DNA from: Parcubacteria group bacterium
GTDB lineage: Bacteria; Patescibacteriota; Minisyncoccia; Moranbacterales; UBA11712
Reading direction: 5' to 3'
DNA: 34,668 bases
Assembly: GCA_041661585.1 (NCBI GenBank)
Contig: JBAZUC010000003.1
Coordinates: 1 to 34,668, forward strand
Part shown: in pieces, positions 8,369 to 30,327 of the stretch
Layout of the letters: every line of letters begins with the position of its first letter
How positions within the stretch are numbered: the first letter of the stretch is position 1
Program-made: the position numbers and the translations under genes
Notes under the pieces: model-generated
What the model saw: the letters and a program-made list of their open reading frames with translations, nothing else
Told to the model about the DNA's origin: nothing
Database searches by the model: none

Positions 8369-9373
8369 TCATCGAGTCACTAATTGCGCAAAGAAGGAAA
8401 ACATCGCTCCCCTAAAAATCATCGTTGCGATAACGCCAGCCAGCAGCCAAATCGCAAAGGGCATGCTTTTTTCATCTTTATTTTTTTGCACGTAAGCAAG
8501 GAGGATGAAAATTGGGCTGAAGAAGAGGGAAAAGAGAATGGAGTGCTTGACCAACGCCAGGATGCTTGCGATGTTTTGAGACGAACTAAAAAATCCGCTC
8601 AACCAAAAATACGGAATGATCGCGAGATAAATCAGAACCAAAATCCACGTCTTTTCCATAAGCCTCTTGAAATAGCTAAAACTTCTGGAGAGGCCTACGA
8701 ATATCAGGACGAGCCACACATTTCCAACTTGCTGATTTCCGCTGATATTCATCACTGAACCCAGCTTGAATCTCATTAGCTGAAAAATAAAAATAATCAT
8801 GAAGAAAATAACAACTGTTTTAACCAGAGTTATGTAATTCTTCCTGATATAACCGATCGATCGACCGAGTATTCCGGCTTCACCCCCAAACTTCAGAGAC
8901 GATGTATCCAGCTCTTTAAAAAAGAAATACAAACTCCGCAGGATCAGAAAAATAAATGCGAAAGTAAAAACATTGAGCAGCAGCGCCAGAGACGGGAAAT
9001 GTGGAAAGGCGCCATTGGAATAATATTTCAGGGGAAGCAATAAAGAAAAAACAAAAAAAAGCTTCGCGTCTCCAGCAGCCCACAGCTTAAAATGCCAGAG
9101 AAGATAGCCAACCGCCAAAGAGATCAGGCTGTTTATGGCAATATCGATAAAAAAATTTACCGAAAAAGCAGACGAAAAATTTCCTGCCCAAACAGCGTCA
9201 GGAAAGAAAGAAGACAGCTTGAACCACAGAAAAAGCATGAGATAACCAAAAACACCCCAGAGCAACCCTGCTTTGATCCATTTGTTCTTGATTTTTCCGC
9301 TCCGGAAATCCTGATAACTGGTGATGGCTCCAATGAAGAACAGCGCCGGTAAAAAGATAAGTTCAATGATCAT
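8369..9373 (-). CDS. A24-family (prepilin/preflagellin peptidase-type) aspartic peptidase-like polytopic membrane protein with an extra C-terminal TM domain
   Basis: Two Asp motifs as in TadV/CpaA/FlaK-type A24 peptidases: ITSYQDFRSGKIKN (D-x-R-x-G-x-I-x-N) and WAAGDAKLF (GxGDxKL-like). 334 aa and hydrophobic throughout. Confidence 0.6.
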   Translation of the reverse strand: MIIELIFLPALFFIGAITSYQDFRSGKIKNKWIKAGLLWGVFGYLMLFLWFKLSSFFPDAVWAGNFSSAFSVNFFIDIAINSLISLAVGYLLWHFKLWAAGDAKLFFVFSLLLPLKYYSNGAFPHFPSLALLLNVFTFAFIFLILRSLYFFFKELDTSSLKFGGEAGILGRSIGYIRKNYITLVKTVVIFFMIIFIFQLMRFKLGSVMNISGNQQVGNVWLVLIFVGLSRSFSYFKRLMEKTWILVLIYLAIIPYFWLSGFFSSSQNIASILALVKHSILFSLFFSPIFILLAYVQKNKDEKSMPFAIWLLAGVIATMIFRGAMFSFFAQLVTR

Positions 9374-9390: not shown

Positions 9391-10320
9391 CTATTTAACG
9401 CATTTGAATTCTCCCCATCCATAATTTTTCACGTAATTTTTATAAACTCCTTCGCAAACATCCACATACCGGCATTTGATGCATACTTTGCCTTTTGTCT
9501 TGTAGGGTATGTTCGATATTTCCCTGATTTTTTTATCCTTTTCAATCAAGCGAATCTCGCCGAAGCCTATATGGGGAACAAGTTTTTTAGAAAAACACAA
9601 AGGGAGGTCAAGGATCGACAAATAATGATACTCCGCGCTGATGTTGGATACCAAGAGTTCCGGCTTGTTGCAAACTATTTTCTCGATCTCTCTCGCCAGA
9701 TCGCTGTATTTCGGCATGAGCTCGAAAAAATCTTTTTCCATATTCTCACCGCGCGGCTGGACAACCAACAGAGAGACATGATCCACCATGAATTGTTTCA
9801 GATATTTCAAAAAGCTTTCCATGTGAAGATAATTTTTCTTATTGACAACATGACTGATCAATATTTTCGACAGTCTATGCCTCTGATCGGAAATGTTGGT
9901 CAGTCCCCTAACAGTTTGGTCAAAACTTCCCGGCGCCCTGGTCAGAAATTCGTGTATACTTTTTTCATGTCCGTGCAGTGAAATAATGAACTCATTGACA
10001 CCGGCTGAAATCAGATCCAGGCAGAAATTTTTATACGCATATCGACGACCATTGCTGATGACCGCTATTTTTTTGAACCCCACTTTTTTTGCGTGCTTGA
10101 CGTATTTGATCAAATCCGGATTGAGCGTAGGTTCGCCGGAAGCAAATATGACCCTGTCGATGTTTTTGTTTTCATTGAGGACGCTGTAAACTCTTTTTTT
10201 GAACTTTTCAACGCTGACGCGCCTCGCCTCCCTGTCCGATTCCATACAAAAACGGCAGAGATTATTGCACATAAACCCCGTCGGAATAGTTAAATTTTTT
10301 TCGACAAGCTTTTCTATCAT
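9391..10320 (-). CDS. Radical SAM protein, paralog group 1, with C-terminal CxxCx5C auxiliary-cluster motif
   Basis: Motifs CNNLCRFC, ASGEPTLNPDL, SNGRRYAYKNF and SLHGH. The tail is CIKCRYVDVCEGVYKNYVKNYGWGEFKCV. ATGA start/stop overlap with the upstream gene. Confidence 0.85.
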   Translation of the reverse strand: MIEKLVEKNLTIPTGFMCNNLCRFCMESDREARRVSVEKFKKRVYSVLNENKNIDRVIFASGEPTLNPDLIKYVKHAKKVGFKKIAVISNGRRYAYKNFCLDLISAGVNEFIISLHGHEKSIHEFLTRAPGSFDQTVRGLTNISDQRHRLSKILISHVVNKKNYLHMESFLKYLKQFMVDHVSLLVVQPRGENMEKDFFELMPKYSDLAREIEKIVCNKPELLVSNISAEYHYLSILDLPLCFSKKLVPHIGFGEIRLIEKDKKIREISNIPYKTKGKVCIKCRYVDVCEGVYKNYVKNYGWGEFKCVK

Positions 10321-11294
10321 TTGAATCGCTTTTTTTGCTTAGACGAGAGATAAACCGGCTTCAAATCGGAAAGAGGATGGATTGCGGCATAATTTCTCCA
10401 GACCCCATTGCAATATTTTTCCAGATCGCAAAGAAGGCATTGCGGAGCCTTTGTTTTGCCATCCGCTGAGAAAATCTTGGTTTCGATTATCTTATTTTGG
10501 TGATCGGCGAAAGATTTTTCGGAAATTTCCATGCATTGGACCGGATATTTCCACCAATCCCCGATACAAAGTGGCAGACCGCAATAGGGATTCATAATCG
10601 TAAAGTTCAACTTTTTTCCAAGAAGAAGCGCTTTTTTCACATAAGGACTGATAGCGCCATATCTCGGCACGATATTTTTATTTGTCCACGCCCTACCGTT
10701 CGGCTGAACTATGGACAATGAAATATATTTTATCTTCGGAAATTCTTTTCTGACAAAACGCAGATATTCAGGCAAATGCCTATAGGTTTCAGCCGTAACG
10801 ACCGGATTTAGCGTCACGATTATTTTTGCTTCCAACAAATTCTTTATGCCCTTGATGCATTTTTCGAACGAATTTTTTATTCCAAGCGCGCGATCATGCT
10901 GGGCGGGGATATGCGAATGAAAACTCACGAAAGCTCGATTCAGTTTATTTTTTTTCAGTAGCTTCACATAGCCCTCTCGGCTCAGCAGTGTCGCATTTGT
11001 CTGCAATTCGACTACGCGGACTCCCTGCTGTTTTGCGAATCGTATGATTTCAGGCAGATCCTTTCGGAGCGTCGGCTCTCCGCCACTGAGGGATATGGCA
11101 ACATCCGAATATTTTTCGGTCAGGTCGCTAATCTCCTCTTTTATTGAATTGATATCTCTTTCTTTCGGCAAATTATATGACTCGGAAGGAACATTGCAAA
11201 AAGAGCATCGGGCATTGCATTTCGTTCCTACTCGGATCACTGGCAAAGACATTATTCGGCTGAATTTTTGCTTTGTTGGCTTAGTGGTTTTCAT
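10317..11294 (-). CDS. Radical SAM protein, paralog group 2, with C-terminal CxxCx5C motif
   Basis: Motifs CNARCSFC, SGGEPTLRKDL, TNATLL and SFHSH. The tail is CLLCDLEKYCNGVWRNY. An alternative ATG lies at 11252. Confidence 0.85.
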   Translation of the reverse strand: MKTTKPTKQKFSRIMSLPVIRVGTKCNARCSFCNVPSESYNLPKERDINSIKEEISDLTEKYSDVAISLSGGEPTLRKDLPEIIRFAKQQGVRVVELQTNATLLSREGYVKLLKKNKLNRAFVSFHSHIPAQHDRALGIKNSFEKCIKGIKNLLEAKIIVTLNPVVTAETYRHLPEYLRFVRKEFPKIKYISLSIVQPNGRAWTNKNIVPRYGAISPYVKKALLLGKKLNFTIMNPYCGLPLCIGDWWKYPVQCMEISEKSFADHQNKIIETKIFSADGKTKAPQCLLCDLEKYCNGVWRNYAAIHPLSDLKPVYLSSKQKKRFK

Positions 11295-12225
11295 CTTCGA
11301 TGATTTTTCTGATTATTTTTTCCTTGGAGACAAAAACAGGATATAACCCTTTCGAGCTGTAATAAACATCCATTGACGTAAGGCCGGCGCAGATCTCATC
11401 GAGCGCGCAGTGTCTGCATTTTTCCGGTTTATCACGGAAAAAATTCCTTTGCACAAGTGTGCCTCTCCCGTCCAGAAAATGGAGCGGCCTTATCTCATCT
11501 TTCACTATTTTTCTGGTTTCCGTCGAAACATGCTCGAAACCAGGCATATAGCAAAGAGGCACTCTTTCTATTCGAAAAGTTTTTCCGGCATCTTCAAACA
11601 CTTTTGCCATTTTGACAAGCTCTATTTCAAAACCATGGAGCGTAGGGATCGTCTTGGTATTTTTCATAGCCCTTTCCGAGGTCGGATCAAGATTGTTGCA
11701 ACTGAAATGACTGACAAAGGGGTATTCAGAAATTATGAATTTCGCGAGCGAACTTAGGTGGTCGGAGTTATATTTATTAAAGGTGATATTGATGTCTGTT
11801 CTTATGCCCTTCTGCTTGGAAAGATTTGTGAGGGTTTTTTTGATGTTTTCAAGTGAATCATCCTTTTTGGCAAGAAAATTCTGGACCTTGGCTCGATGGG
11901 AATATATTGAAACATGTACATGCTTCAGACCTGCCTTGAATAATCCTTCAAGATATCTTTTGTTCGCCGTTTTTTGGGCGTTGGTTATCATCTTTGTCTC
12001 AATCTTCTTTTTTGTGCAGTATCGAATCAGATCCGCGAGTTTTGGATATTTCGTCGGTTCTCCTCCAGTCAGAATAACTCCATCATATCCTCCTTCTATA
12101 TAACCATCAACAATCTTTTTCGCCTTGGAAAGCGGCATATCTTTCCATCCCGATGGAGGATTTGAACAAAAAAGACATTCTTGGTCGCACTCCCTTGTTA
12201 TTTGAATGTATGCAAAATTTGCCAT
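11281..12225 (-). CDS. Radical SAM protein, paralog group 2, with C-terminal CxxCx5C motif
   Basis: Motifs CDQECLFC, TGGEPTKYPKL, TNAQK and SIYSH. The tail is CRHCALDEICAG. Confidence 0.85.
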   Translation of the reverse strand: MANFAYIQITRECDQECLFCSNPPSGWKDMPLSKAKKIVDGYIEGGYDGVILTGGEPTKYPKLADLIRYCTKKKIETKMITNAQKTANKRYLEGLFKAGLKHVHVSIYSHRAKVQNFLAKKDDSLENIKKTLTNLSKQKGIRTDINITFNKYNSDHLSSLAKFIISEYPFVSHFSCNNLDPTSERAMKNTKTIPTLHGFEIELVKMAKVFEDAGKTFRIERVPLCYMPGFEHVSTETRKIVKDEIRPLHFLDGRGTLVQRNFFRDKPEKCRHCALDEICAGLTSMDVYYSSKGLYPVFVSKEKIIRKIIEDENH

Positions 12226-12235: not shown

Positions 12236-13423
12236 CTATTTTATTTTTTTTATCACACGCACCTTATCTCCTTTTGAGATAGGCTTCAGGCTCTTGAATC
12301 CGTTTTCTCTTATATAGTCGATCTGGGCTCCATCACATTGGCTATTCGAGCTGCAAATCTGACATTTCTTGCTTTTAAGAAAATACCGATGCTGAATGAA
12401 AAAATTCAGGAAATCTTGTATGCAAATTATTCCGGATTTTCTAATAGTCTTCGACTTTTGCCCAATTTTTATTTTCCCCAGGCACATCGCAATTTTTCTT
12501 GAAGATAACTGTCCCTTTTCCCTAAATTCGATGAGGTCACCGCAAAACATTTCCAAACTGCAATAGCCGCACCTTTCACCCCGGCATTCCATCATCTTCC
12601 CTTTCTTGAGATAAGCTTCGAACATATCCTTGCGCCCGTTGATCTCATCATACAACTTGTTGGGATGCTGTATCAATTCTTCGAATCCGTCAAGGTATTG
12701 AGGAGGAAACCTGTTCGTCCAGATATAAACATCCGGGCGGCGTGAAAATGCAAGCGCCTTTTTTATTCGAGGCATGGCTTTTTCCATGTCATAGAACAAT
12801 TCACCGCGATCTTCCCACGCTCGACCAAAAGGAATGATTTGGAGGAGATCAAATTCGTGTATCCCCAAAGCCACAAAATATTCAACTATTTCATCAAGCT
12901 GCTCACAATTTTGCTTATTTATGACAATATCTTGATTGACTATCAAGCCCGGAATCTCAAGAGCGTTCTTGAGGCCGGTTATAGCCTGCCGAAATGACCC
13001 CCTCACTCCCGTAAGCTTATCATGAAGTTTATCATTGTGCCCATGTATGGAAAAAGTGATCTCATTCACTCCCGCAGCGACAGAAGCGAGGAGGAAATTG
13101 TTGTACGCGAACATCCGGCCGTTCGTTATCACCTGAATATGCTTATAGCCCATTTTTTTTGCCATTTTTACCGCCTCCAAAAACTGCGGGTGGATAGTGG
13201 CCTCGCCTCCGCTCAAAACCACTTGGTCTATGTGTTGATCTCTCCCCTGCTGGAGATTTTTTCTTATTGAACTAAGCGGCAAAGCAGTGCCATTTTGAGC
13301 GTCTTTGTCAAGACAGAACATGCAATTGTTATTGCACCTCCGGGTCAGCCGTACCCAATGTTTCTTTTTGGTAGCTGCTTTTTCCTTTTCTTCTTTCTTT
13401 TTCCGTTCAAGGTCTTTTTTCAT
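12236..13423 (-). CDS. Radical SAM protein, paralog group 1, with two CxxCx5C motifs (extended C-terminus)
   Basis: Motifs CNNNCMFC, SGGEATIHPQF, TNGRMFAYNNF and SIHGH. Has CGYCSLEMFC plus a second CQICSSNSQC in an extension of about 80 aa. Confidence 0.85.
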   Translation of the reverse strand: MKKDLERKKKEEKEKAATKKKHWVRLTRRCNNNCMFCLDKDAQNGTALPLSSIRKNLQQGRDQHIDQVVLSGGEATIHPQFLEAVKMAKKMGYKHIQVITNGRMFAYNNFLLASVAAGVNEITFSIHGHNDKLHDKLTGVRGSFRQAITGLKNALEIPGLIVNQDIVINKQNCEQLDEIVEYFVALGIHEFDLLQIIPFGRAWEDRGELFYDMEKAMPRIKKALAFSRRPDVYIWTNRFPPQYLDGFEELIQHPNKLYDEINGRKDMFEAYLKKGKMMECRGERCGYCSLEMFCGDLIEFREKGQLSSRKIAMCLGKIKIGQKSKTIRKSGIICIQDFLNFFIQHRYFLKSKKCQICSSNSQCDGAQIDYIRENGFKSLKPISKGDKVRVIKKIK

Positions 13424-14843
13424 GGTTTTTCATTTTCCTTTTTATCGCGGATTCATAGACGAAAAAAAGAGCTGCTATATATTTATCTTCCGCGTCTTGA
13501 GGCTTTATCCTGAAATATTTTTTTTCTTTTCTTATTTTTTTCATTTTTCGCAATGACTGCAAAGCAAAAGGAAAAACGTCTTCAAGTCTTTTCCCAAAAA
13601 TCCTGAGAAAATCCTGGTGAAATATTTTCGTTCCTTGCTCAAAAGAACTTATCACAAAATTCAGCATTTCATCAGCGCTTGTCAAATCCCGGCCGGAAAA
13701 TATTTTCTTGGTTTCAGAAAAATCATCAAAGCTTCCAGCCTGCTGGTATTCCAGTTCGCCATAAACATGGGATCTGGAAAAGGGACCCATTCCAAAAGTG
13801 CTGCTGGGAGAACAGGCAGAAAATTCGCCTCCGTACGCCTTGCCAAATCCTTCACGTGCTTTCATAATTTTTGAATACACAGGATCGCTGAATTGCCAGT
13901 GAAACTTTGCCAGATCAAAGGGCTTGGACGTGTATCCCTTTTTCTCCGCGATTTTGAATGCTTCACGCATAAAAATCGGCATAGTTTTGGGATAATGTTT
14001 TTTGAAATATTCCTGGTAGTTCATTTTGAAATGCTTTTTGACGTACTGGCTGTCAGGCGGATAAAGACCGTAGCAAATGATCGTCGTCGGCTCAAGATCG
14101 ATCAGCTTCGAAAAACTTTCCGCAAAAGTTTTGGGAGTATCTCCCGGCAATCCGACAATAAGATCCGTGTTTATGATCTTGAAACCCAATTTTTTTGCCA
14201 TAGTTACGGCTGCAGCAACTTGTTCATAGGTTTGATATCCTCTTCCGGCTATCGTCAACGTTTTGCGACTGAAGGACTGCACGCCGAAACTCACGCGGTC
14301 AAAATCATATTTTTTCAGTATCTCGAGCTTGGACAAATCGCCGACGCTTGCATTGAATTCACAAGTCCTGATCCTTTCCTCGGAATTTTCCAAAAAATTG
14401 AACCGCCCGAAAAGCGACGAGAGAAGCTTCTCCATCTGATAACTGCTGAGAATATTCGGCGTCCCCCCGCCAATATAAAGATTCCTGAATTTTGTTTTCG
14501 AGAATGTTTTTTGGAAATATTTTATCGTATCCACCAAAAAATCGACGTATTGGCTAACTCTTTTTAGCTCCCTTAACTCATCCGACGGAAATGAACAATA
14601 ACCGCATCTGGAATTGCAAAACGGGATATGGATATAAAAATTTATATTTTCCAGCAATTCTTTTTTTCCGCGCAATCCGACAAAATTTTTCCAAAACTGC
14701 CGGACATCGGAAACGGAATATTTTTCGGTCGCTTTTGACAAGAAAAAAAGCCGGCTGATATTCGAATAGTAAGCGTCTTTTTCGAGAAACGACCTGAAAA
14801 ATTCAATTTGCCTTTTCAAATTATTGTCAGTTTTTTTTGTCAT
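13407..14843 (-). CDS. HemN/HemW-like radical SAM protein (possible class C radical SAM methyltransferase type)
   Basis: Motifs YIHIPFCNSRCGYCSFP and LYIGGGTPN are typical of the HemN family. The track start is 14921. I prefer the ATG at 14843 (MTKKTDNN...), which forms an ATGA overlap with the upstream stop. Confidence 0.8.
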   Translation of the reverse strand: MTKKTDNNLKRQIEFFRSFLEKDAYYSNISRLFFLSKATEKYSVSDVRQFWKNFVGLRGKKELLENINFYIHIPFCNSRCGYCSFPSDELRELKRVSQYVDFLVDTIKYFQKTFSKTKFRNLYIGGGTPNILSSYQMEKLLSSLFGRFNFLENSEERIRTCEFNASVGDLSKLEILKKYDFDRVSFGVQSFSRKTLTIAGRGYQTYEQVAAAVTMAKKLGFKIINTDLIVGLPGDTPKTFAESFSKLIDLEPTTIICYGLYPPDSQYVKKHFKMNYQEYFKKHYPKTMPIFMREAFKIAEKKGYTSKPFDLAKFHWQFSDPVYSKIMKAREGFGKAYGGEFSACSPSSTFGMGPFSRSHVYGELEYQQAGSFDDFSETKKIFSGRDLTSADEMLNFVISSFEQGTKIFHQDFLRIFGKRLEDVFPFALQSLRKMKKIRKEKKYFRIKPQDAEDKYIAALFFVYESAIKRKMKNHEKRP

Positions 14844-15778
14844 CTCTTTTTCTGAAAAATGACCGGATTGAACTCCTTCCATCCTTTTCTCTTTATGTAC
14901 GACTTCCAGACTCCGCTGCATTCCTCATTCATTTTACATTTGCGGCAATTCGCGCCCTTGATCTTTTCAGGCCATCGGACCGAAGCCGGCTTCGTTTTGC
15001 GCGCTTCCAGATTTTTTCTTCTCATTGCCGGCTCATAGTTTATGACATTTGTCTCCAATCCCCGGATCAAGCAGGGCGGCAGACCCATAATATATATTTT
15101 CGGGTGCTTCTTCGATTTTCGTTCGATTTGGGCAACAGCCTTTCTCAGATTTTTGCCAACTTTCGAATAATCAGGGACTATTTCTTCAAAATTCTCTTCG
15201 GCTCGTCCCTCAGGCAGCACAGTGTTGAGCACGATTCCTTCGATGTTCGGAAAAGAAATTATCAGCTCCAGAAAATCTTTGATATTTTTATAATTAATCT
15301 TGTTCATCAAAAAATTGATATAGAGTTGAAAAGGATACTTCTCCCGGAGAAAAGACAAATTGCATATTCCTAAAAATGTTTCACTGAAGCTTCCGGGAAC
15401 TCGGGTGATCTTTTCATGAATTTCCTTCACGCTTCCGTGCAATGAAACATTTATTTCCGTTACGCCCGCTTTGACTATTTTTTCACAGAATTTCTTGTCC
15501 GCAAATCTGCGACCATTGGAAATCAAACCGATTTCAGGATAGCCGCATTTCTTGGCAATTTCCACGAGCTCAATAAGATCCGGATGAAGAGTCGGCTCGC
15601 CCGAAGAGAACAAAACTTTATTGACCTTTCCCTGCATCGCCCTAAGGTCTTTTTCTGCATATTTCCGAAGACTCCGATAATCGAGCCTGTTTTGTTTGTG
15701 AACATCCGAACAAAACAAACATCCATTATTGCAATGTGAGTTGGTAAGTATATGCAATCTTTCATTCCTGACCGTCAT
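14840..15778 (-). CDS. Radical SAM protein, paralog group 1, with C-terminal CxxCx5C motif
   Basis: Motifs CNNGCLFC, SSGEPTLHPDL, SNGRRFADKKF and SLHGS. The tail is CRKCKMNEECSGVWKSYIKRKGWKEFNPV. The track start is 15868. I prefer the ATG at 15778 (MTVRNE...), which forms an ATGA overlap with the upstream stop. Confidence 0.85.
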   Translation of the reverse strand: MTVRNERLHILTNSHCNNGCLFCSDVHKQNRLDYRSLRKYAEKDLRAMQGKVNKVLFSSGEPTLHPDLIELVEIAKKCGYPEIGLISNGRRFADKKFCEKIVKAGVTEINVSLHGSVKEIHEKITRVPGSFSETFLGICNLSFLREKYPFQLYINFLMNKINYKNIKDFLELIISFPNIEGIVLNTVLPEGRAEENFEEIVPDYSKVGKNLRKAVAQIERKSKKHPKIYIMGLPPCLIRGLETNVINYEPAMRRKNLEARKTKPASVRWPEKIKGANCRKCKMNEECSGVWKSYIKRKGWKEFNPVIFQKKR

Positions 15779-16692
15779 TTTTTTCGCCTTGAAATTTTTA
15801 ACATTGAAACCGCCTTGAACTCGTCCCACCCAAATTTTTCCGGATATTCTCGCCAAGAACCTTCGCACACCTTGTCATAATCACATTTCTTGCATTGAGG
15901 CCCCTTCGCCTTGCCTTCATTTCGGCGAGCCTCAGTGAAATTCTCAACTACCGACTTAAAATCATAGATTTTCGTGGATGGAATGATATTTTCGGCGATA
16001 TGATCTTCATAGCCACTCATAAAACAATACGGAATCGCTTCGGTCATGCACGCTATTCCCTTCTTTTTCCCGATATCGAGCCCTTTTTTCGCGAACGGTT
16101 CAACCAGAGTCATGCGCGGAACGATGGAATCGAAATTATCCCTCGCGTTGCCGGTAGCGTGAACAAACGCAAATTGATATTGATCAGCACCAAGATTGAT
16201 AAGCAATCGGGCAATTTCCGGAAGATGCCTATAGTTTGATCTGGTAATAACAGTGTTTGTGATAATTTTTTGACCAAGTTTTTTCAAATTCTTGATTCCT
16301 TTCGTAGTCTGGTCGAAACTTCCCTTGGCAGAGGTGAGATAGTCATGAAGCTCGGCGCAATGTCCATGCAAAGCGGGTGAAAATTCATTTGCGCCCGCCT
16401 TAATCGTCTTTTTGCAGAAATCCAAATACGCGAACATCCGGCCATTGGTTTGAATCTGAATCGTTTTGAATTTCAATTCTTTGGCAAACCCCACAAGTTC
16501 CAAAAAATCGGATCGGATCGTCGGCTCGCCGCCCGTAAATACAATGCCTTGGCAATCACGGGAAGCCTCTTTCATTTCTTCTTTAACTTTGGAAGTTTTT
16601 TTATCTCTGAATTCGGTTCGTTTTCTCCCCTGCACGCAAAATAGGCAGTGATTATTGCAGGAAAAGCCTATTTTTATATCAGCTTTTTTCAT
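15775..16692 (-). CDS. Radical SAM protein, paralog group 1, with C-terminal CxxCx5C motif
   Basis: Motifs CNNHCLFC, TGGEPTIRSDF, TNGRMFAYLDF and ALHGH. The tail is CKKCDYDKVCEGSWREYPEKFGWDEFKAV. ATGA overlap with the upstream gene. Confidence 0.85.
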   Translation of the reverse strand: MKKADIKIGFSCNNHCLFCVQGRKRTEFRDKKTSKVKEEMKEASRDCQGIVFTGGEPTIRSDFLELVGFAKELKFKTIQIQTNGRMFAYLDFCKKTIKAGANEFSPALHGHCAELHDYLTSAKGSFDQTTKGIKNLKKLGQKIITNTVITRSNYRHLPEIARLLINLGADQYQFAFVHATGNARDNFDSIVPRMTLVEPFAKKGLDIGKKKGIACMTEAIPYCFMSGYEDHIAENIIPSTKIYDFKSVVENFTEARRNEGKAKGPQCKKCDYDKVCEGSWREYPEKFGWDEFKAVSMLKISRRKK

Positions 16693-17594
16693 TTTTTTGC
16701 CACATTGATTAAAAATTCAGTCAAGGTGCGATCCACTTTCATCGTAATTTTCAGAATTTCCTCCGGAAATGTCCTTTTCAAGATGTATTTCGGGTCAATG
16801 TTCAGGGGAAAATCGGAAACAGCGCGCCAGTCCGCAAGATTATGCACATTGCCTAATTTTAGCATATTGCCATATTTTCTGATATGTCTGTCGAGAAAAT
16901 AGTTTCCAAAATAAACATCCCCGTTGCAATCAACCGTAAGCGCGGAGCTGTGGAGAGGCACTTGATTTTTTTGCTCCAAATTTTCGAGTCGTATTCTTGT
17001 CTTCGCGCTTGCAATGACTTTTCTCATTTCATCAAAACATTTCCGAAGACTCCTGATTTCCTTCAGGGACCATTTAACATAGTAAGCCGGCAAAAATTTG
17101 AATCTCCTGATCCCTTTCCCGCTGAGGTCGACAAAAATACTTTTTGCTGAATCCGTTTTCCCCGGCAGTAGGTTTATGGTTACGACCAGAGAAGGCAATC
17201 TGGTGCAAATATTGAGAAAAAGACGGCTGCTGAAAATTTCTTTGCGCACCGAACTGACAATCAGCTTCAAGTTGGGTCTTTTCTGAAAAAAATCAACTTT
17301 TTTTCTGTCAAGGAGCAGGCCGTTGGTCACAAGGTCGAAATCGACGTTCGCATATCTTTTTTGAGTTCGATTCACAATCCTTCTTATAACTTCAAAATTG
17401 AGCAGTGGTTCGCCACCGAAAAATCTTATGAGCGGCCTTTGAGAAGAATCATTTTTTCCCAAAAAAAGAGAAACAGCCCTCCAGGCAGTTTCAAAGTTCA
17501 TATTTGTATTGCTTTTCTCCACTTGGCAGTGAGCGCATCTGAGATTGCATCGCTTTGTGACGACCAAGATCAGAATTTTTTTGTCAGACCTCAT
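16689..17594 (-). CDS. Radical SAM peptide-maturase-like protein lacking a complete SPASM Cys set (possible HxsC counterpart)
   Basis: Motifs CNLRCAHC near the N-terminus, FFGGEPLLNF and VDCNGDVYFGN (pre-SPASM-like), but no CxxCx5C. It is the first gene downstream of the His-Xaa-Ser peptide. Confidence 0.75.
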   Translation of the reverse strand: MRSDKKILILVVTKRCNLRCAHCQVEKSNTNMNFETAWRAVSLFLGKNDSSQRPLIRFFGGEPLLNFEVIRRIVNRTQKRYANVDFDLVTNGLLLDRKKVDFFQKRPNLKLIVSSVRKEIFSSRLFLNICTRLPSLVVTINLLPGKTDSAKSIFVDLSGKGIRRFKFLPAYYVKWSLKEIRSLRKCFDEMRKVIASAKTRIRLENLEQKNQVPLHSSALTVDCNGDVYFGNYFLDRHIRKYGNMLKLGNVHNLADWRAVSDFPLNIDPKYILKRTFPEEILKITMKVDRTLTEFLINVAKK

Positions 17595-17691: not shown

Positions 17692-17964
17692 TCAATAGGC
17701 GCCGTGAGAACCGTGGGAGCCGTGAGCGCCGTGAGAACCGTGGGAGCCGTGAGAACCGTGGGAGCTATGCGAACTATGAGCGCAAGTGGCGCTGGCGATG
17801 TTCGCATTCGGTTTCATAAGCCCGGACAGAGCAGCGGCACTGGCAATCGCCACTATTCCCATTCTTGCTACGCTTGATTTGTTGATACTACCCTCTTCAC
17901 TTGAAAGAAAGGCTTTTATTTGTTTTTTGATTCTGGGAATCTTTGCTTTTTTTGTTTGTGCCAT
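17692..17964 (-). CDS. hxsA: His-Xaa-Ser repeat peptide (HxsA-like candidate precursor), 90 aa
   Basis: MAQTKKAKIPRIKKQIKAFLSSEEGSINKSSVARMGIVAIASAAALSGLMKPNANIASATCAHSSHSSHGSHGSHGSHGAHGSHGSHGAY. The track start at 17973 is TTG; I prefer the ATG at 17964. Has a basic N-terminus, one hydrophobic segment, a single Cys, and then nine H-x-S/A triplets. Confidence 0.7.
   Translation of the reverse strand: MAQTKKAKIPRIKKQIKAFLSSEEGSINKSSVARMGIVAIASAAALSGLMKPNANIASATCAHSSHSSHGSHGSHGSHGAHGSHGSHGAY
17698..17778. repeat. Coding tandem repeat (period 9/18 nt) specifying the nine His-Xaa-Ser/Ala triplets
   Basis: The plus strand reads GCGCCGTGAGAACCGTGGGAGCCGTGAGCGCCGTGAGAACCGTGGGAGCCGTGAGAACCGTGGGAGCTATGCGAACTATG, with repeated GCCGTGAGAACCGTGGGA units. 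Locally GC-rich. Confidence 0.85.
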
Positions 17965-17996
17965 ATGAGTCAATTTTTATTAATTGTTATTTTTAA

Positions 17997-18962
17997 TTAG
18001 CTTTTTGCAGCATCTTCCAGAGCTTTCAGGCGATTATTGTCATAATACATATCACATCTAACCTTGCCTGTGTCCAGGATGGAACGGCAATCAAAATTTT
18101 GGTCAAAAAACAATTTGTATATGGGATACTGGTTCCTGCGGGAAATCTCTTCAAGCAGATCCGGATTATTTTCCCTGACTGCTCTCACGAAATGGGACAG
18201 CTGGACACACTCATACCAGAGATCTTCCCCGACTGTCGGATCCTGAGGAGAGGGTATGAATTTTCCCTTTTGGTCATCACAGACCGCAAAATCTTTTTTG
18301 TTGACGGCCAGACAAATTGACCGAGCCAGTGATCCATTTTGAAAATCCGCGCAGCTTTGTTCTGTTTTGGCGGTGACAAGCGCGCTGCACAAATTTTCGC
18401 AGTCTTTCTTGTCTGAATCCTTGCAAGCCTGCACATATTCAGGCAAACATTGTCCGGAACGCATAGCCGGTAAAACGGAATCTTTAAATAATTTGAATTG
18501 GAACTCGCAATGAGTTTCAACGAGCGGATCAGGAATTTTTTGGCATTCTTCGATTTTTCCATTTTTTATGGCGGAACAGGTCAAATACTTTTCGGTTTCG
18601 AATGGATTCATTCGGAACATATCGGGAATCGCCTGCGACATGGCCACTGCGTCAAAATTCGCTATTCCATCATATGTTTCCTCGCATTTTCCTTTTTCAG
18701 CAGTAAGATAGTCTGTTATCTCTTGAATGCTTTTCCCCTTTATCTTCGACAATTCATCGGCAGAAACAACGGCCTTGCTCTTTTTTTCATAAGACAGGGA
18801 ATGAGGGCTGTTGTACGATGCCTTCTTCGCAACTTTCTCATCCAATGCCTTTTTGCGGATCTGCTGAACCTGCCAGCTCCCAAAGATCACCGCGGCTATC
18901 GCCAAAAGGCAGATGATCGCCACAATAATGATCTTTTTGTTTTTGTTTTCTTCTATTATCAT
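17997..18962 (-). CDS. Membrane-anchored Cys-rich protein (N-terminal TM helix, 14 Cys in the predicted external part)
   Basis: 321-aa ORF. Starts MIIEENKNKKIIIVAIICLLAIAAVIFG, followed by a soluble region with 14 Cys. I do not recognise a family. Confidence 0.6.
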   Translation of the reverse strand: MIIEENKNKKIIIVAIICLLAIAAVIFGSWQVQQIRKKALDEKVAKKASYNSPHSLSYEKKSKAVVSADELSKIKGKSIQEITDYLTAEKGKCEETYDGIANFDAVAMSQAIPDMFRMNPFETEKYLTCSAIKNGKIEECQKIPDPLVETHCEFQFKLFKDSVLPAMRSGQCLPEYVQACKDSDKKDCENLCSALVTAKTEQSCADFQNGSLARSICLAVNKKDFAVCDDQKGKFIPSPQDPTVGEDLWYECVQLSHFVRAVRENNPDLLEEISRRNQYPIYKLFFDQNFDCRSILDTGKVRCDMYYDNNRLKALEDAAKS

Positions 18963-19019
18963 TTTTTTAAAATAAATTGTAAAAAAATTTTATTGAAAAT
19001 CTTTGTTTTTGTCAACCAT

Positions 19020-20513
19020 CTATTTGGGAGGAATTTTCTGACTGCATTCGATTTCTCTTCTTGCCCATCTTTCTAATATTTTTTTTGTTTTGTTGCTCTG
19101 CAAATATTCAAAAATCATATCAAAAATGGATTTTGAAATAATGCACCGCATGCTATTTGGCTGTTGACTGAAAATGTTTCCCGTTTCGGCATAGTTATAG
19201 ATCGGACACACCCCGCAATAGGGCTGATATGCGCAATGGGCACACCCGGCCTGACAACTCGTTTCGGAAGCCAAGCACATCCCTTTTAATGTTGGGTTGT
19301 CTATTATCTCCGAATAACTGTTTTTTGTGACATCTCCCAGCTTAAACATATCTTCTCCCGCATATCCCATCATTCTTCCCTCGTCGCAGGTATATATGCT
19401 TCCGTCATAATCATAGGCCAATTGGCCGATGCCCGCTCCGCAAGGCGAACGCAATTCCAGATAATTGATGTCTTCATCCTCAAGTATCTTCGATGCCATC
19501 ATTGCGGCTGTCCGCTCATGAAATTTTTTTCCGGATTTATTCAGCTCAAAAATATATTCCAGCGCCTTTTGGTAAAATTTCAGATATTCCTCCGTAGTAT
19601 AGCCTATTTTCGACCAGATCTTTCCTGCTATCCCGAGCGGACTCAAGGGCCTCAAAAATATCGCTTCAAATCCCCACTTGAGATATTCATCAACAATTTC
19701 TTTTGGATGATCCAGCGAGAACCGGCTGACGGTCACAATCGCTCCCGGCTGATGATAATATATTTTCCCTTTCACCTTTTTCCGTTCCAATTGCCTGTAT
19801 TTTTCAAGGGCGATATTGAGCCATTTGGTGGTGCTCTCATAGCTGCCTTGCGCCAGAAACGGACGATTTTTGTTTTGAATCTCCTTCGGACCATCCAAAG
19901 ATGAGCAAAGCGCCACGTGATTGTTGAAAAAGAACTCCAATTTTTCTTTGTCCATCAATGAAAAGTTCGATACCAGCCGCAATTCCAAATTCTTTTTTTC
20001 GGCCTTGTTCTTCTCGTTGGCGTATTCAACAATAAACTTCACAATCGGCCAATTCAGAAGCGGCTCTCCGCCCTGAAATTCTATGGCGATATTTTTGTTT
20101 GGAGTGGTAAAGATGAAATCGACGGTCTGCTTCGCGGTTGCCAGATCCATATCATATTTCATATCATCCACTTTTTTCGAGCTCGTCTGGCAATATATGC
20201 AATTATAGTTGCAGCGCAAGGTCACGACAATGATGTGAAGACTCGGACCTCCGAGGAGATTCCCTCGTTTCTTCGCGTATTTTTCAATGTACGTTTCAAA
20301 ATTTATCTTATCCCGAATGAAATTTTTTTTCAGCAATTCGCGATACTTCTTGTTTTTCGGATTTATTTTCCCCTCGAGATATTGCTTGAATTCCTTCTCT
20401 TCAAGCAACGCATAATCTCCCACGTCGTTCGTTAAGAGGTATTCCTTACCCAATTTTTTATATCGAAAAAATCCGACTTTCGAGTGATTCAGTTTATTCG
20501 TATTGAAATCCAT
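19020..20513 (-). CDS. hxsB: Radical SAM/SPASM peptide maturase (HxsB-like)
   Basis: 497 aa. Has an N-terminal extension of about 100 aa, then CNYNCIYC and FQGGEPLLNW. The SPASM region reads CGAGIGQLAYDYDGSIYTC...CQAGCAHCAYQPYCGVCP...RC. Confidence 0.8.
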   Translation of the reverse strand: MDFNTNKLNHSKVGFFRYKKLGKEYLLTNDVGDYALLEEKEFKQYLEGKINPKNKKYRELLKKNFIRDKINFETYIEKYAKKRGNLLGGPSLHIIVVTLRCNYNCIYCQTSSKKVDDMKYDMDLATAKQTVDFIFTTPNKNIAIEFQGGEPLLNWPIVKFIVEYANEKNKAEKKNLELRLVSNFSLMDKEKLEFFFNNHVALCSSLDGPKEIQNKNRPFLAQGSYESTTKWLNIALEKYRQLERKKVKGKIYYHQPGAIVTVSRFSLDHPKEIVDEYLKWGFEAIFLRPLSPLGIAGKIWSKIGYTTEEYLKFYQKALEYIFELNKSGKKFHERTAAMMASKILEDEDINYLELRSPCGAGIGQLAYDYDGSIYTCDEGRMMGYAGEDMFKLGDVTKNSYSEIIDNPTLKGMCLASETSCQAGCAHCAYQPYCGVCPIYNYAETGNIFSQQPNSMRCIISKSIFDMIFEYLQSNKTKKILERWARREIECSQKIPPK

Positions 20514-20535
20514 AATCTTCCAACGTCTTAATTTC

Positions 20536-20736
20536 TCACATGCCTTTCTCGAGGCTCAAAATATAGTTGCAGAATTCTCGCTCGATAACATCCTGCGTGC
20601 CGTTCTCTTTTGGCTTGATCGAGATCAAATAATACTTTCCTTTTTCTGACAGTCGGAAACCGGCAAGTCCTTTATAATCTTTTATTGCCTGCTCGATCGC
20701 CTCTCGAACATATATTTTTCTGTTTAATTTTACCAT
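20536..20736 (-). CDS. Small HxsD-like protein (66 aa)
   Basis: MVKLNRKIYVREAIEQAIKDYKGLAGFRLSEKGKYYLISIKPKENGTQDVIEREFCNYILSLEKGM. The track ORF extends to 20919, overlapping the upstream gene. I prefer the ATG at 20736. The sequence resembles the N-terminal two thirds of the neighbouring HxsD-like protein and ends in an F-x-N-Y-x-L-x-x-E motif. Confidence 0.45.
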   Translation of the reverse strand: MVKLNRKIYVREAIEQAIKDYKGLAGFRLSEKGKYYLISIKPKENGTQDVIEREFCNYILSLEKGM

Positions 20737-20749
20737 GCTGATTTTGTCG

Positions 20750-21214
20750 CTATTTTTTCTTTGCCTTTTTTTCTCTTTTCTTTGGAGCCGGCTGCGCATC
20801 TTCCCAGGAAGTGGCAATTCCCAGCGGGTCATCGCGCCAATCGCCGGCAGACTGATCATTTTCAACGCTTGGCTGTTCCGATAAATTTTCCGGCAAGCTG
20901 GAAACCAGCGCGGACGCAACGATATATTCCCTAATCTTCTGGTTGTTTCTCGCTATTTCCACTCGCAGAAGAAAATTCAGCAGTTCATTGAGAAACTCGC
21001 CCTCCAAGGCTTCTAATTTCTTTTTATCCGCTTTTTCTTTGCTCCTAAGCCGAACCATTATTTCTTTTTCAGGATCTCCGTCCAAATATATGTAGGCCCT
21101 GTCAATAAAAACATAAGCAGCGCTGAAAATAGCTTCCAGCGGATAATTTTTCGTTTTCAGCCAAAACACCACATCTTGATCTTTTGGGCTGATTTTTCTT
21201 TTTGGTAGCTGCAT
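20750..21214 (-). CDS. hxsD: HxsD-like protein (154 aa) with a charged C-terminal tail
   Basis: YPLEAIFSAAYVFIDRAYIYLDG...MVRLRSKE...LEGEFLNELLNFLLRVEIARNNQKIREYIVASAL. The ELLNFLLRVE segment resembles the LLNDYxLRE signature I recall for the HxsD family. Confidence 0.55.
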   Translation of the reverse strand: MQLPKRKISPKDQDVVFWLKTKNYPLEAIFSAAYVFIDRAYIYLDGDPEKEIMVRLRSKEKADKKKLEALEGEFLNELLNFLLRVEIARNNQKIREYIVASALVSSLPENLSEQPSVENDQSAGDWRDDPLGIATSWEDAQPAPKKREKKAKKK

Positions 21215-21228
21215 ATGTTTGGTCTTTG

Positions 21229-22269
21229 TTAATTCGTCTCAATCCAGCCACAGGAGCGGGTGTTCCCAGCGCGGCAAGATGAGATAGTGCCTCCACAAAC
21301 AGTGCTTCCACACGTCCAGACCCACTCCGTGTAATTGTTTTCCAAGCTGCCATTATTGAAGGAGCTTTCCGGAGAACACAAGTTACTCGAGGGAGTGCCT
21401 GATTGACAGAAATTGTTTCCGTCGAGGCTACCGCATTGGCCAGTTTGTTTCACGTCATAAGTCTTGCTGCATGGAGCAGTCGGGGTATGGCATGGATCAT
21501 TGTTTGTACAATCCCACTTCCATGGATTGTCTGCGCTGCCGTCACCGTGAAAATTTGTCGCTGTGTTGTCTGCAACGCATAAGTTGGGACTGGACGAGGT
21601 GAGCGACTCACCTTGGCAGATAGTCCCTCCAAGCACGCTCCCACACTGACTTTGGCTTGGAGTTAGGGCGGTAGCACAGCATAAAGGCGAAGACTGTCCT
21701 CCAAAAAAACCGTCACATTTCCAGCTCCAAGGATTGTCATTGTTTATGATATTCGGCATCCCAATGATGCATAACTCGGAAGAAGGCTTTGTATTCAAAG
21801 TATCTGGCGCGCAGAAAGATAGGTTTTGCGCACACTTCCCATCTATGTTGCCAAGAACAAAACTTCCTTGGGCATAGGGACTCCAATCATAAGCGTCCTT
21901 CACTCTCACGGCATAATTGTATGTAGAGTTGTCAATTGGTAGCGTTCCCGGAGGTACTTCGTATGAATAGTTCCCCGGCGGAAACGGAGCTGGTAACGTC
22001 AGGGATTTGATCCCTGTGTCATAGTTGGTTGATGCACTGGTAATTGTTATTTGATAATTATAAAAGGGACTTCTAGATACTTTGAAATTTATTTTTGGTC
22101 TGTTTGGGTTGATCAAATCGGGTTCAGGCGGCCCGACACAAACCTCGATATTCGTAAACGGCGCTGCTCCAAATGTTTCACTCGCAAAACTGCACACAAA
22201 AACCAAAACGAGTAAAATTGTGGCTATTCTCTCGATTTTGATATATTTTTTTTTGTTTTCGTTATTCAT
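21229..22269 (-). CDS. Secreted Cys-rich protein: signal peptide, paralogous N-terminal domain of about 100 aa, and three W-x-W-x-C modules
   Basis: Signal-like ATILLVLVFVCSFASETFGAAP. The domain NIEVCVGPP...VRVKDAYDWSPYAQGSFVL is shared with 22400-22978. The three modules are NPWSWKCDG, NPWKWDCTN and YTEWVWTCGS. The stop is 14 nt before the hxsD-like start. Confidence 0.65.
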   Translation of the reverse strand: MNNENKKKYIKIERIATILLVLVFVCSFASETFGAAPFTNIEVCVGPPEPDLINPNRPKINFKVSRSPFYNYQITITSASTNYDTGIKSLTLPAPFPPGNYSYEVPPGTLPIDNSTYNYAVRVKDAYDWSPYAQGSFVLGNIDGKCAQNLSFCAPDTLNTKPSSELCIIGMPNIINNDNPWSWKCDGFFGGQSSPLCCATALTPSQSQCGSVLGGTICQGESLTSSSPNLCVADNTATNFHGDGSADNPWKWDCTNNDPCHTPTAPCSKTYDVKQTGQCGSLDGNNFCQSGTPSSNLCSPESSFNNGSLENNYTEWVWTCGSTVCGGTISSCRAGNTRSCGWIETN

Positions 22270-22288
22270 TTAAAGATAACTTACTATA

Positions 22289-22318
22289 AATGTACGGCAT
22301 GCTTCATTCTTTGGTCAA
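22289..22318 (-). promoter_or_regulatory. Possible sigma70-type promoter upstream of the 346-aa secreted protein
   Basis: On the minus strand: TTGACC (22318-22313), an 18-nt spacer, then TACATT (22294-22289). It is preceded by an imperfect hairpin around CTCGGCCGAG (22347-22356). Confidence 0.25.
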
Positions 22319-22399
22319 ATCTAGCTTAAATACACTTCTGCGAAACTCGGCCGAGTCGCTGCAGTATCTCACAAAGACGAATTTCGCACGCAGAGACTT

Positions 22400-22978: not shown

Positions 22979-23040
22979 AATAGTTTTTTGTCCCGCGTAA
23001 TATTAACTATATTCTCACGAAACAGAATCTGCTTATTGCT

Positions 23041-23069: not shown

Positions 23070-23089
23070 ATTGATACAAATAGAGCAGC

Positions 23090-24222: not shown

Positions 24223-24247
24223 ATTGATAGTATATACTTTAAGAGAC

Positions 24248-30320: not shown

Positions 30321-30327
30321 ATGCGTG

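Follow-up and report, generated by a model that had tools for sequence, protein, structure and literature searches.

Introduction

Within the Hxs superfamily, only the four-gene proteobacterial system has been studied experimentally. This HXS system of Escherichia coli, Klebsiella and other Pseudomonadota blocks phage DNA entry (Li et al., Nat Commun 2026, PMC13128918), and phage defence is the only experimentally supported function in the superfamily. According to the accepted view, an Hxs substrate consists of a leader and a target and is matured by radical S-adenosylmethionine (rSAM) enzymes. In E. coli, a modification of +8 Da maps to an HxS repeat of the substrate HxsA. HxsC is required and binds HxsD, and unmodified HxsA is inactive in the periplasm. 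The N-terminal cleavage of HxsA needs HxsB, HxsC and HxsD, and no protease is known for it. The genes follow the order D-B-C-A in 99.6% of the systems, with 99.7% in Pseudomonadota (PMC13128918). Here we analyze a stretch of 34,668 nucleotides (the window) from a Parcubacteria group bacterium, which encodes a 90-amino-acid (aa) peptide of the HxsA4 family within a cluster of nine rSAM genes.

The cluster of the window shares with the canonical HXS system orthologues of HxsB and HxsD, HxsC-related rSAM proteins, a tandem H-x-S target and an N-terminal export signal, and an N-terminal processing is likewise expected. On the other hand, canonical HxsA is of the TIGR03979 type with a peptidoglycan-binding domain, whereas the window peptide has 90 aa, nine triplets and no such domain, the TIGR03979 model giving no match to it at E<=0.01. 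The order D-B-C-A is also replaced by HxsD, HxsD-like, HxsB, a variable gene, HxsA4, eight rSAMs and an A24-like protein. Finally, the canonical system belongs almost entirely to Pseudomonadota, whereas HxsA4 systems are found in Patescibacteria, Omnitrophota and DPANN archaea. Compared with the NCBIfam family HxsA4 (NF038313), itself a computational annotation, the window peptide differs in no family-defining feature. A literature search for publications on HxsA4-type systems or on rSAM peptides from the candidate phyla radiation returned nothing specific.

We consider it fairly probable that this peptide, made on the ribosome, serves as both substrate and effector in a "type 4" Hxs rSAM maturation system carried by the core chromosome, and that its modified His-rich tail is exported. 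The identification of the peptide is solid and was largely anticipated by existing annotation; the interest lies in the biology of the variant and in its gene context. New here are six ancient HxsC-like paralogues with conserved orthologues and an A24-like protein that closes the array.

Results and Discussion

The peptide is a member of the HxsA4 family

Translation of the window on the reverse strand between 17692 and 17964 gives MAQTKKAKIPRIKKQIKAFLSSEEGSINKSSVARMGIVAIASAAALSGLMKPNANIASATCAHSSHSSHGSHGSHGSHGAHGSHGSHGAY followed by a stop codon. The peptide thus has 90 aa and a single Cys (C61), and its gene can be divided as follows.

17692..17964, reverse strand: hxsA4-family precursor/effector gene, 90 aa plus stop (translation, NCBIfam NF038313, at least 190 homologues)
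17857..17964, reverse strand: conserved basic leader, residues 1-36, including P10, K13-K14, F19-L20, E23-E24-G25 and the R34-M35-G36 junction
17815..17856, reverse strand: hydrophobic segment, residues 37-50 (IVAIASAAALSGLM), export signal or membrane anchor
17779..17814, reverse strand: linker, residues 51-62 (KPNANIASATCA), holding Cys61 and the A-S-A motif
17698..17778, reverse strand: nine uninterrupted H-x-S/A triplets, residues 63-89, presumed rSAM target and functional array
17692..17697, reverse strand: Tyr90 codon and stop codon, end of the peptide gene

All the elements listed in the initial annotation, which had been made from the sequence alone, are present in this translation: the Lys/Arg-rich N-terminus, the FLSSEEGS patch, the hydrophobic stretch, the lone Cys, the nine triplets and the final Tyr. 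That annotation had also suggested a comparison with HxsA-type peptides. The peptide indeed passes the HxsA4 model NF038313 with 61.9 bits (cut-off 55, E 7.9e-17), its residues 8-88 aligning end to end with positions 1-82 of the 93 of the model, and HxsB, HxsD and an HxsD-like protein are encoded nearby. The HxsA3 (NF038309) and HxsA2 (NF038296) models align with it too, below their cut-offs, and the HxsA4 and HxsA3 models match 30 of 30 aligned relatives. Pfam provided no domain for the peptide, only a sub-threshold match to collagen repeats.

Among 5.8 billion protein clusters, at least 190 homologous clusters (90% identity) were detected with E-values down to 5e-30; none of these was identical, the best being 51% identical. 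The few that bear a name are labelled HxsA4 or hypothetical and come from Patescibacteria, Falkowbacteria, Omnitrophota, Elusimicrobiales and one metagenome-assembled genome (MAG) labelled as Actinobacteria. A profile search of 1.84 billion representatives gave 726 clusters (50% identity) at E<=1e-3, 115 of them at E<=1e-10. Since the match to a curated hidden Markov model (HMM) lies above its cut-off and at least 190 homologues exist, the HxsA4 frame is real, far beyond chance. The possibility that another frame or strand is the conserved one had been raised at the outset; in the six frames of the window, the peptide frame alone has an HxS run or an FLxxEEG leader motif, with no second occurrence of either. 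As judged from these matches, the open reading frame (ORF) is a genuine gene of a family already curated in NCBIfam and named by NCBI's pipeline.

Four parts make up the HxsA4 architecture, all of them present in the window peptide: a basic leader that bears FLxSEEG, a hydrophobic stretch, a run of HxS triplets in register, and a C-terminus that is either aromatic or GGWC. The Lys-rich N-terminus, the FLSSEEGS patch and the hydrophobic stretch, picked out from the single sequence, turn out to be the most conserved elements across the family. The leader follows the consensus KK-[LIF]-P-x-I-K-K-[DN]-I-K-x-F-L-x-S-E-E-G-K-I-[TS]-K-K-x-x-x-K-[IL]-[G/A], in which F is found in 118, L in 119, the two E in 119 and 112, and G in 113 of 121 sequences. 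The residue directly before the hydrophobic stretch is nearly always small (G 97, A 20, S 3; 120/121), and K or R stands two positions before it in 103 of the 121 members. The hydrophobic stretch itself comprises about 14-16 uncharged residues (median uncharged span 16) with an average Kyte-Doolittle hydropathy of 1.97 in the best 15-aa window, and the linker that separates it from the array is variable.

The array has 4-23 triplets in the 118 relatives considered, always in register and with mostly G, S or A as x residue, so that with nine triplets and a Tyr the window peptide is mid-range. It is directly followed by W (46 relatives), Y (18) or GGWC (14) in 78 of 118 cases; regardless of any spacer, the last residue is W in 57, Y in 21 and C in 19. 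In some relatives a spacer, about 120 residues long at most, sets the C-terminal HxS run apart from the hydrophobic stretch, so that the array behaves as a displayed module whose distance from the membrane varies rather than as a compact core of a ribosomally synthesized and post-translationally modified peptide (RiPP). Proteins in which the leader and hydrophobic stretch are joined to long spacers or to large C-terminal domains exist as well (P0294, 484 aa; L004 10007-11674; P0326, P0296 and P0355), and P0355 and P0342 have no HxS run at all despite an HxsA4 leader and hydrophobic stretch.

At the DNA level, the GC-rich repeat of 9/18-nucleotide (nt) period described at 17698-17778 in the initial annotation was recovered with an additional period. 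Tandem Repeats Finder placed periods of 9, 18 and 27 nt at 17699-17774, period 27 having the top score (94% matches, 2.3 copies, score 110), which indicates that the array contains a near-perfect duplication of a three-triplet block. This duplication is visible in the codons at the end of the array, CACGGCTCC CACGGTTCT CACGGCGC[T/C]. The longer arrays of relatives likewise show higher-order units of 27 or 36 nt. The GC content of the array is 0.654, vs 0.432 for the entire window.

Two public contigs, which are independent assemblies from the same organism as the window, bear on the array. The Logan contig from SRR18595301 (L016) is 100% identical to window 17736-24752 and the JGI contig Ga0172379_10177130 (L019) to window 17706-19230, and both terminate within the array. 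In the JGI contig the array extends into the eighth triplet, up to its His codon, which largely corroborates the array as written; the remainder of the eighth triplet, the ninth triplet, the terminal Tyr and the exact copy number come from the window assembly alone. The breaks could result from repeat-induced assembly breakage or from copy-number heterogeneity in the population. The idea that repeat number might vary is borne out across the family, whose members differ five-fold in copy number, and found no counterpart within the population: one metagenome scan gave no variant allele, its sole contig being identical to the window and ending inside the array. A misassembly could also be suspected behind the ORF or its repeat number, or else a non-coding repeat of low complexity. 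Two independent assemblies ending within the array could be taken that way, but both agree perfectly with the window up to their ends, one of them into the eighth triplet, and a curated HMM as well as hundreds of homologues match the frame. We regard such an artefact as extremely improbable.

The peptide gene stands in a large rSAM cluster

The genes surrounding hxsA4 on the reverse strand are listed in the order of transcription.

20750..21214, reverse strand: HxsD (TIGR03976, 64.7 bits vs cut-off 50; PF27806 HxsD recorded on the identical Logan contig)
20536..20736, reverse strand: HxsD-like small protein, 66 aa from the ATG at 20736 (NF038315, 67.8 bits vs cut-off 41)
19020..20513, reverse strand: HxsB, radical SAM/SPASM maturase (TIGR03978, 526 bits vs cut-off 370)
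17997..18962, reverse strand: Cys-rich 321-aa protein (15 Cys) with an N-terminal hydrophobic anchor, between hxsB and hxsA4
16689..17594, reverse strand: short rSAM protein, 301 aa, with an HxsB/PapB-like N-terminal core and without the SPASM Cys set
15775..16692, reverse strand: HxsC-like rSAM paralogue 1 (HxsC4 180.6 bits, HxsC 117.5 bits, both sub-cut-off)
14840..15868, reverse strand: HxsC-like rSAM paralogue 2 (HxsC4 186.3 bits, sub-cut-off; CX3CX2C and CX2CX5C intact)
13407..14921, reverse strand: HemN/HemZ-like (class C-type) rSAM (HemZ 161.9 bits, HemW 129.1 bits, sub-cut-off)
12236..13423, reverse strand: HxsC-like rSAM paralogue 3 (orthologues 45% identical in L007, L008 and L012)
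11281..12225, reverse strand: HxsC-like rSAM paralogue 4 (orthologues 48-51% identical in L006, L007, L008 and L012)
10317..11294, reverse strand: HxsC-like rSAM paralogue 5 (family-model match and rSAM motifs)
9391..10320, reverse strand: HxsC-like rSAM paralogue 6 (HxsC4 224 bits, the best of the window, vs cut-off 500; L007 orthologue 45% identical)
8369..9373, reverse strand: A24 (prepilin-peptidase-like) polytopic membrane protein, 334 aa, closing the rSAM array (Peptidase_A24, 21.3 bits vs 26.5)

From hxsA4 to the A24-like gene the cluster is tightly packed, with ORFs that overlap or abut. In the 97-nt gap after the peptide gene, a terminator/attenuator scan gave no site, the RNA fold z-score being +0.73. 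The HxsD-like ORF extends to a TTG at 20919; the NF038315 match covers residues 63-124 of this long ORF, and the gene is called with 66 aa on the Logan contig. Probable starts are the ATG at 15778 for HxsC-like paralogue 2, which overlaps the upstream stop as ATGA, and the ATG at 14843 for the HemN/HemZ-like rSAM.

HxsB has a CX3CX2C motif at residue 101 and a full C-terminal Cys set. Downstream of the peptide gene are eight more rSAM genes, namely the short 301-aa protein, six HxsC-like proteins of about 300-395 aa and the HemN/HemZ-like one. The CX3CX2C motif is kept in 9/9 cluster rSAMs and the C-terminal CX2CX5C in 6/6 HxsC-like proteins. All six HxsC-like proteins remain below the cut-offs of HxsC (TIGR03977, at most 117.5 vs 267.9) and HxsC4 (NF038332, 224 vs 500), which counts against a plain assignment to the Hxs system; HxsC4 and HxsC are nevertheless the two top models for each of them. 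By these scores, they are homologous to HxsC and HxsC4 but outside both equivalogs. The paralogues of the window are 22-36% identical among themselves, whereas individual orthologues elsewhere share 45-60% identity (55-60% for paralogue 1, in L004, L007, L008, L012, L018 and L021). It follows that the duplications are old and that each copy has been conserved on its own, an indication of distinct roles and not of a recent amplification. Homologues were also found for the short rSAM (L004, L006, L007, L008, L012, L018 and L021) and for the HemN/HemZ-like rSAM (L004, L005, L007, L008, L012 and L020).

The agreement between nine triplets and nine rSAM genes had been pointed out from the sequence as perhaps fortuitous. 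The count of nine cluster rSAMs is correct, but the two numbers are unrelated across relatives, with triplet/rSAM counts of 19/3 in L003, 20/4 in L013, 5/8 in L008, 6/at least 7 in L012 and 5/1 in L017. We thus rejected a link and regard the agreement as a coincidence.

Whether the Cys-rich 321-aa protein is part of the Hxs system is uncertain. Neither Pfam nor NCBIfam nor PADLOC assigns this protein to a family, and comparison with L001-L015, L017, L018, L020 and L021 gave no homologue. An unannotated 314-aa gene lies beside P0003 at the matching position, and other relatives have a short HxsB-like rSAM in this slot.

A parallel can be drawn with RiPPs matured by rSAM/SPASM enzymes, such as SCIFF, ranthipeptides (PapB), sactipeptides and the substrates of the cyclophane-forming XyeB/GrrM-OscB systems. 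HxsB is a homologous SPASM maturase, matching the PapB, nif11, SCIFF and CcpM models with 135-109 bits, and HxsA4 resembles the substrates of these systems by its small size, its conserved leader and its repetitive C-terminal target. The leader-core-like layout proposed in the initial annotation agrees as well with the accepted view of rSAM-matured Hxs substrates (PMC13128918). However, the presumed targets in HxsA4 are His and Ser instead of Cys, an internal hydrophobic export segment is present, up to nine rSAMs are encoded instead of one or two, and there is no RiPP-type transporter or protease.

This comparison bears on Cys61, in which the initial annotation saw an obvious candidate for a thioether crosslink. 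Cys61 could be acylated as the +1 residue of a lipobox, or be engaged by the SPASM enzyme in a thioether of the sactipeptide or ranthipeptide type. Some relatives do contain a lipobox-like L-G-A-C or L-A-S-C, and HxsB is homologous to maturases that form thioethers, such as PapB and SCIFF. Nonetheless, S-A-T-C in the window peptide misfits the lipobox [LVI][ASTVI][GAS]C and places the Cys 10 residues past the hydrophobic stretch. Moreover, a linker Cys exists in only 57 of 118 relatives, and Omnitrophota-type members have an h-x-n-x-f-f...g-g-H motif in its place, so that Cys is not the core chemistry of the family; a conserved core Cys donor of the sactipeptide or ranthipeptide type is not found. 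For the window peptide both fates seem improbable to us, and as a feature of the family we rejected them.

The system in related genomes

Searching reference genomes by the HxS pattern only provided at least 15 loci (the taxon counts are thus illustrative and no census), to which loci from metagenomes were added. Homologous His-x-Ser peptides do stand beside rSAM genes in these relatives, as the initial annotation had anticipated, and HxsB is in the core of the locus. The loci share a constant core, made of HxsD, HxsD-like, HxsB and HxsA4, and a variable accessory module. The order HxsD/HxsD-like/HxsB/(variable)/HxsA4/rSAMs/A24-like, or the same modules close by, is observed in L001, L003, L006, L008, L012, L018 and L021. 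In the locus L018, from the Patescibacteria MAG GCA_030018805.1, FtsZ and FtsA are 86% and 79% identical to those of the window and the Hxs cluster occupies the matching chromosomal site, after FtsA-FtsZ, by which the window can be assigned to the lineage of this MAG. The cluster proteins are 50-61% identical to those of the window and have thus diverged more than FtsZ and FtsA.

Carriers among reference genomes include Moranbacteria, Parcubacteria, Saccharibacteria and Omnitrophota as well as the DPANN archaea Nanobdellota, Woesearchaeota and Iainarchaeum. HxsA4-like peptides of DPANN are those of L009, L010 and L015, the last of which also has HxsD, HxsB, five HxsC-like genes and one A24-like gene. 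The distribution is thereby cross-domain and concentrated in ultra-small lineages.

These associations are difficult to reconcile with a simpler role, in which the unmodified His-Gly-Ser tail would bind Ni, Zn or Cu and the rSAM genes would be irrelevant. Proteins with His-rich segments are known in metal storage and as metal chaperones, for example Hpn and the tails of HypB or UreE. The segment T60-A89 that follows A59 is in keeping with such a role, as its 30 residues comprise 9 His and no acidic or basic residue. But in bacterial as in archaeal phyla the peptide shows a strict linkage to HxsB and HxsD, and its conserved leader would have no role in simple metal binding. In addition, unmodified E. 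coli HxsA is inactive when delivered to the periplasm (PMC13128918). We find this explanation very improbable.

Another hypothesis would split the cluster in two. HxsB, HxsD and the HxsD-like protein alone would mature HxsA4, and the HxsC-like, HemN-like and A24-like proteins would belong to an adjacent, separate pathway modifying small molecules, lipids or pilins. This would account for L017 and L002, where HxsA4 occurs with HxsB/HxsD and without HxsC-like or A24-like genes, for L001 and L006, where the HxsC-like/A24 module lies upstream at 2-3 kb, and for L020 and the P0216 contig, where rSAMs are mixed with aminotransferases, a pyruvoyl arginine decarboxylase (PvlArgDC), DUF483 and B12-binding rSAMs. 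It conflicts, on the other hand, with the canonical HXS system, which requires HxsC and in which HxsC binds HxsD (PMC13128918). The best family matches of the HxsC-like proteins are precisely HxsC4 and HxsC, and in the majority of the loci examined hxsA4 and the module are no more than a few kb apart, the genes of the window being tightly packed. We judge a split system rather unlikely.

Two of these loci deserve a description of their own. In L017 (9671-10231 and 10484-15929), of Falkowbacteria type, two tandem HxsA4 genes (102 and 76 aa) occur with HxsD, HxsD-like and HxsB and without HxsC-like or A24-like genes. An acetyltransferase, an acyltransferase and an AMP-binding/PP-binding protein come next instead, a neighbourhood that hints at acylation rather than multi-rSAM tailoring. 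In L020 (880-9999 and 12382-13952), as on the P0216 contig, the A24-like/HxsC-like arrays stand among aminotransferases, PvlArgDC and DUF483, and B12-binding rSAMs and a U32 peptidase are present too. The HxsC-like/A24-like module may have roles beyond HxsA4.

A candidate peptidase closes the array

Class III signal peptides and type IV prepilins are cut by A24 prepilin peptidases such as PilD, CpaA/TadV and FlaK/PibD. The polytopic membrane protein encoded at the end of the rSAM array could be related to these enzymes. The Pfam model Peptidase_A24 matches 5/5 of its homologues from related loci with a best E of 6.5e-8, and some homologues are labelled prepilin peptidase or CpaA by their source databases. 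In a 37-sequence alignment, D22 and A100-G101-D102-x-K104 are invariant, D22 and G101-D102 being, in this alignment, the counterparts of the two Asp motifs of prepilin peptidases. An A24-like homologue comes right after the last HxsC-like gene in L003, L007, L008, L018, L020 and L021 and adjoins HxsC-like genes in L001, L006 and the archaeal L015. Three loci found by searching from the peptidase show again an A24-like protein closing an array of about 300-aa rSAMs.

The peptide itself has features that could suit such an enzyme. The junction R34-M35-G36|I37 combines a small residue with a basic residue upstream, as in prepilin-type substrates, and across the family the G/A/S at the junction with K/R two positions earlier resembles a class III (prepilin-type) cleavage site. 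The likeness to prepilins thus comprises a basic leader, a near-invariant small residue before a hydrophobic helix and, in the locus, an A24-like protein with two putative Asp motifs. There are also differences. The HxsA4 leader is long (36 aa) and highly conserved, its basic residue is at P3 instead of P2, position +5 of the window peptide is not Glu, the N_methyl model (PF07963) does not match it, and some relatives have Thr at P1. Likewise, the A24-like proteins have 320-400 aa with an extra C-terminal half, and the member of the window scores below the Pfam cut-off. Based on the conserved motifs and the gene order, we propose the A24-like protein as a candidate leader peptidase.

Several observations weigh against this assignment. 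The protein of the window reaches 21.3 bits only, below the Pfam cut-off of 26.5, and its AlphaFold2 (AF2) model, with a mean predicted local distance difference test (pLDDT) value of 84.9, gave no match at E<0.7 when compared with the PDB by Foldseek; a profile search against PDB sequences returned noise only. Thr occupies the proposed P1 position in L005, L007 and L008, of which L007 and L008 encode an A24-like protein, and Ala41 rather than Glu is at +5 in the window peptide. The A24-like gene tracks HxsC-like arrays, not HxsA4, and L017 and L013 carry HxsA4 with neither HxsC-like nor A24-like genes. Finally, two pilin-like (N_methyl) genes follow the A24-like gene in L020, and the A24-like protein might serve those.

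The position of the cut would decide what leaves the cell. An extended Sec signal could be removed by signal peptidase I after A57-S58-A59, freeing a RiPP of about 31 residues, TCA(HxS)9Y, that would diffuse as a metallophore, an antimicrobial or a signal; in its essentials this is what the initial annotation had pictured. The A-S-A motif is well placed for this, 7-9 residues past the hydrophobic stretch, and the uncharged span of merely 16 residues with K-P directly after it suits a cleavable Sec signal better than a stable anchor, which also counts against a membrane-embedded product. In 45 of 121 relatives the hydrophobic stretch has a Pro close to its end, the window carries the gene of a LepB-type signal peptidase (30450-31088), and in E. 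coli the export of HxsA requires its signal peptide (PMC13128918). Yet in the family alignment neither the A-x-A (the IASA motif highlighted in the initial annotation) nor the residues preceding the Cys are conserved, in contrast to the small residue at the leader junction. The spacers of relatives, which reach about 120 residues, misfit a compact core that is secreted, the locus has conserved an A24-like peptidase of its own, and the cluster lacks the transporter or peptidase-containing ABC exporter typical of RiPPs. We hold a freely secreted peptide to be rather unlikely, and we return to processing at the G36|I37 junction in what follows.

Proposed maturation pathway

We propose that the maturation of HxsA4 would proceed in five steps. 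First, the 36-residue basic leader (KK-P-IKK-I-FLxSEEGKI...K-x-G) would dock HxsB and the HxsD proteins. The AF2 model of the peptide, of low confidence (pLDDT 61.5), contains helices 11-24, 29-49 and 54-60 followed by a coil tail, and helix 11-24 would belong to this docking region. Second, HxsB, the six HxsC-like and the HemN-like enzymes would covalently modify the triplets, and perhaps the terminal Tyr, in the cytoplasm; the modification of the triplets is suggested by the E. coli precedent, in which +8 Da map to an HxS repeat. Third, the hydrophobic stretch would carry the uncharged His-rich tail of 30 residues over the membrane in an N-in/C-out orientation. An external tail, already considered in the initial annotation, fits the charge bias of the peptide, with 9 K/R before the hydrophobic stretch and 1 after it.

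In the fourth step, the leader would be removed. The cut favoured here is G36|I37, made by the A24-like putative aspartyl peptidase and leaving a short membrane-embedded or pilin-like peptide, because the A24-like gene and the junction residue are both conserved. The alternative is signal peptidase I acting at A59|T60, which would free the tail. In the last step, the modified tail would act at the cell surface, with a block of phage genome entry as the default function.

Phage defence is indeed the default for the system of the window, but weakly so, by analogy with HXS. The analogy meets several difficulties. The x residues are G, S or A and not basic, as is invoked for DNA binding in E. coli; the locus stands among housekeeping genes (NrdDGR, FtsAZ, HisRS, LepB) in conserved synteny and not in a defence island; and the carriers are mostly ultra-small organisms with different envelopes. 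PADLOC v2, which includes no Hxs model, returned only generic viperin-like rSAM matches. Metal binding by the nine His of the tail is plausible, and a role in host contact speculative.

A broader hypothesis is that of a surface module shared across domains by ultra-small and largely episymbiotic prokaryotes (Patescibacteria, Omnitrophota and DPANN). Up to nine rSAMs would modify the array, an A24 peptidase would process the peptide as a prepilin, and a membrane-embedded or pilus-associated His-rich filament or tail would be displayed. Its role could be host contact, metal capture or envelope gatekeeping instead of the periplasmic DNA trap of proteobacteria. We put this forward as a tentative and rather doubtful extension. 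If true, the peptidase of the locus would point to the type of protease that is missing from the E. coli model.

What makes the locus of interest is that about 13 kb of a probably very small genome are devoted to one 90-aa peptide, with accessories that are individually conserved: the six old HxsC-like proteins, the HemN-like class C-type enzyme, the truncated HxsB-like rSAM and the A24-like peptidase. This set offers a natural series for resolving the effect of each rSAM on the H-x-S triplet, as well as a concrete candidate for the processing enzyme. Should the tail be displayed on host-attached cells, it could matter for resistance to phages or for the interaction with hosts in lineages that do not grow in culture by themselves.

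Neighbouring genes and other features of the window

The cluster is bordered on one flank by ComEC, ApbE, a small rSAM, NrdD and NrdR, and on the other by FtsZ, FtsA, DAGK, YbeY, YqeY, HisRS, LepB, a LytR-family protein, Pth and BipA. Two of these genes are of relevance here.

4654-5433, reverse strand: tenth radical SAM protein, 259 aa, with Radical_SAM and Fer4_12, beside nrdD and nrdR
30450-31088: LepB-type signal peptidase gene

The tenth rSAM, probably the NrdG activase, has no relation to the Hxs cluster. The histidyl-tRNA synthetase gene (28968-30335, reverse strand) is about 11 kb from the gene of the His-rich peptide, as it is in L018; this proximity probably reflects mere conserved synteny.

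Just upstream of hxsD, 21229-22269 and 22400-22978 (both on the reverse strand) encode two secreted or anchored paralogues that share 45% identity over 156 aa. The larger one is Cys-rich, no family could be assigned to either, and a 462-aa homologue (42% identical) occupies the equivalent place in L018. Between these genes and ftsZ, 23090-24103 (reverse strand) encodes a 337-aa protein with a C-terminal CX3CX2CX2C and no family match, which the syntenic L018 lacks. Scanning the window for Rfam families and tRNAs gave no matches. AT-rich tandem repeats of 7 nt/14 nt are found in two intergenic regions, at 30328-30456, upstream of the lepB-like gene, and at 33801-33923, between pth and bipA.

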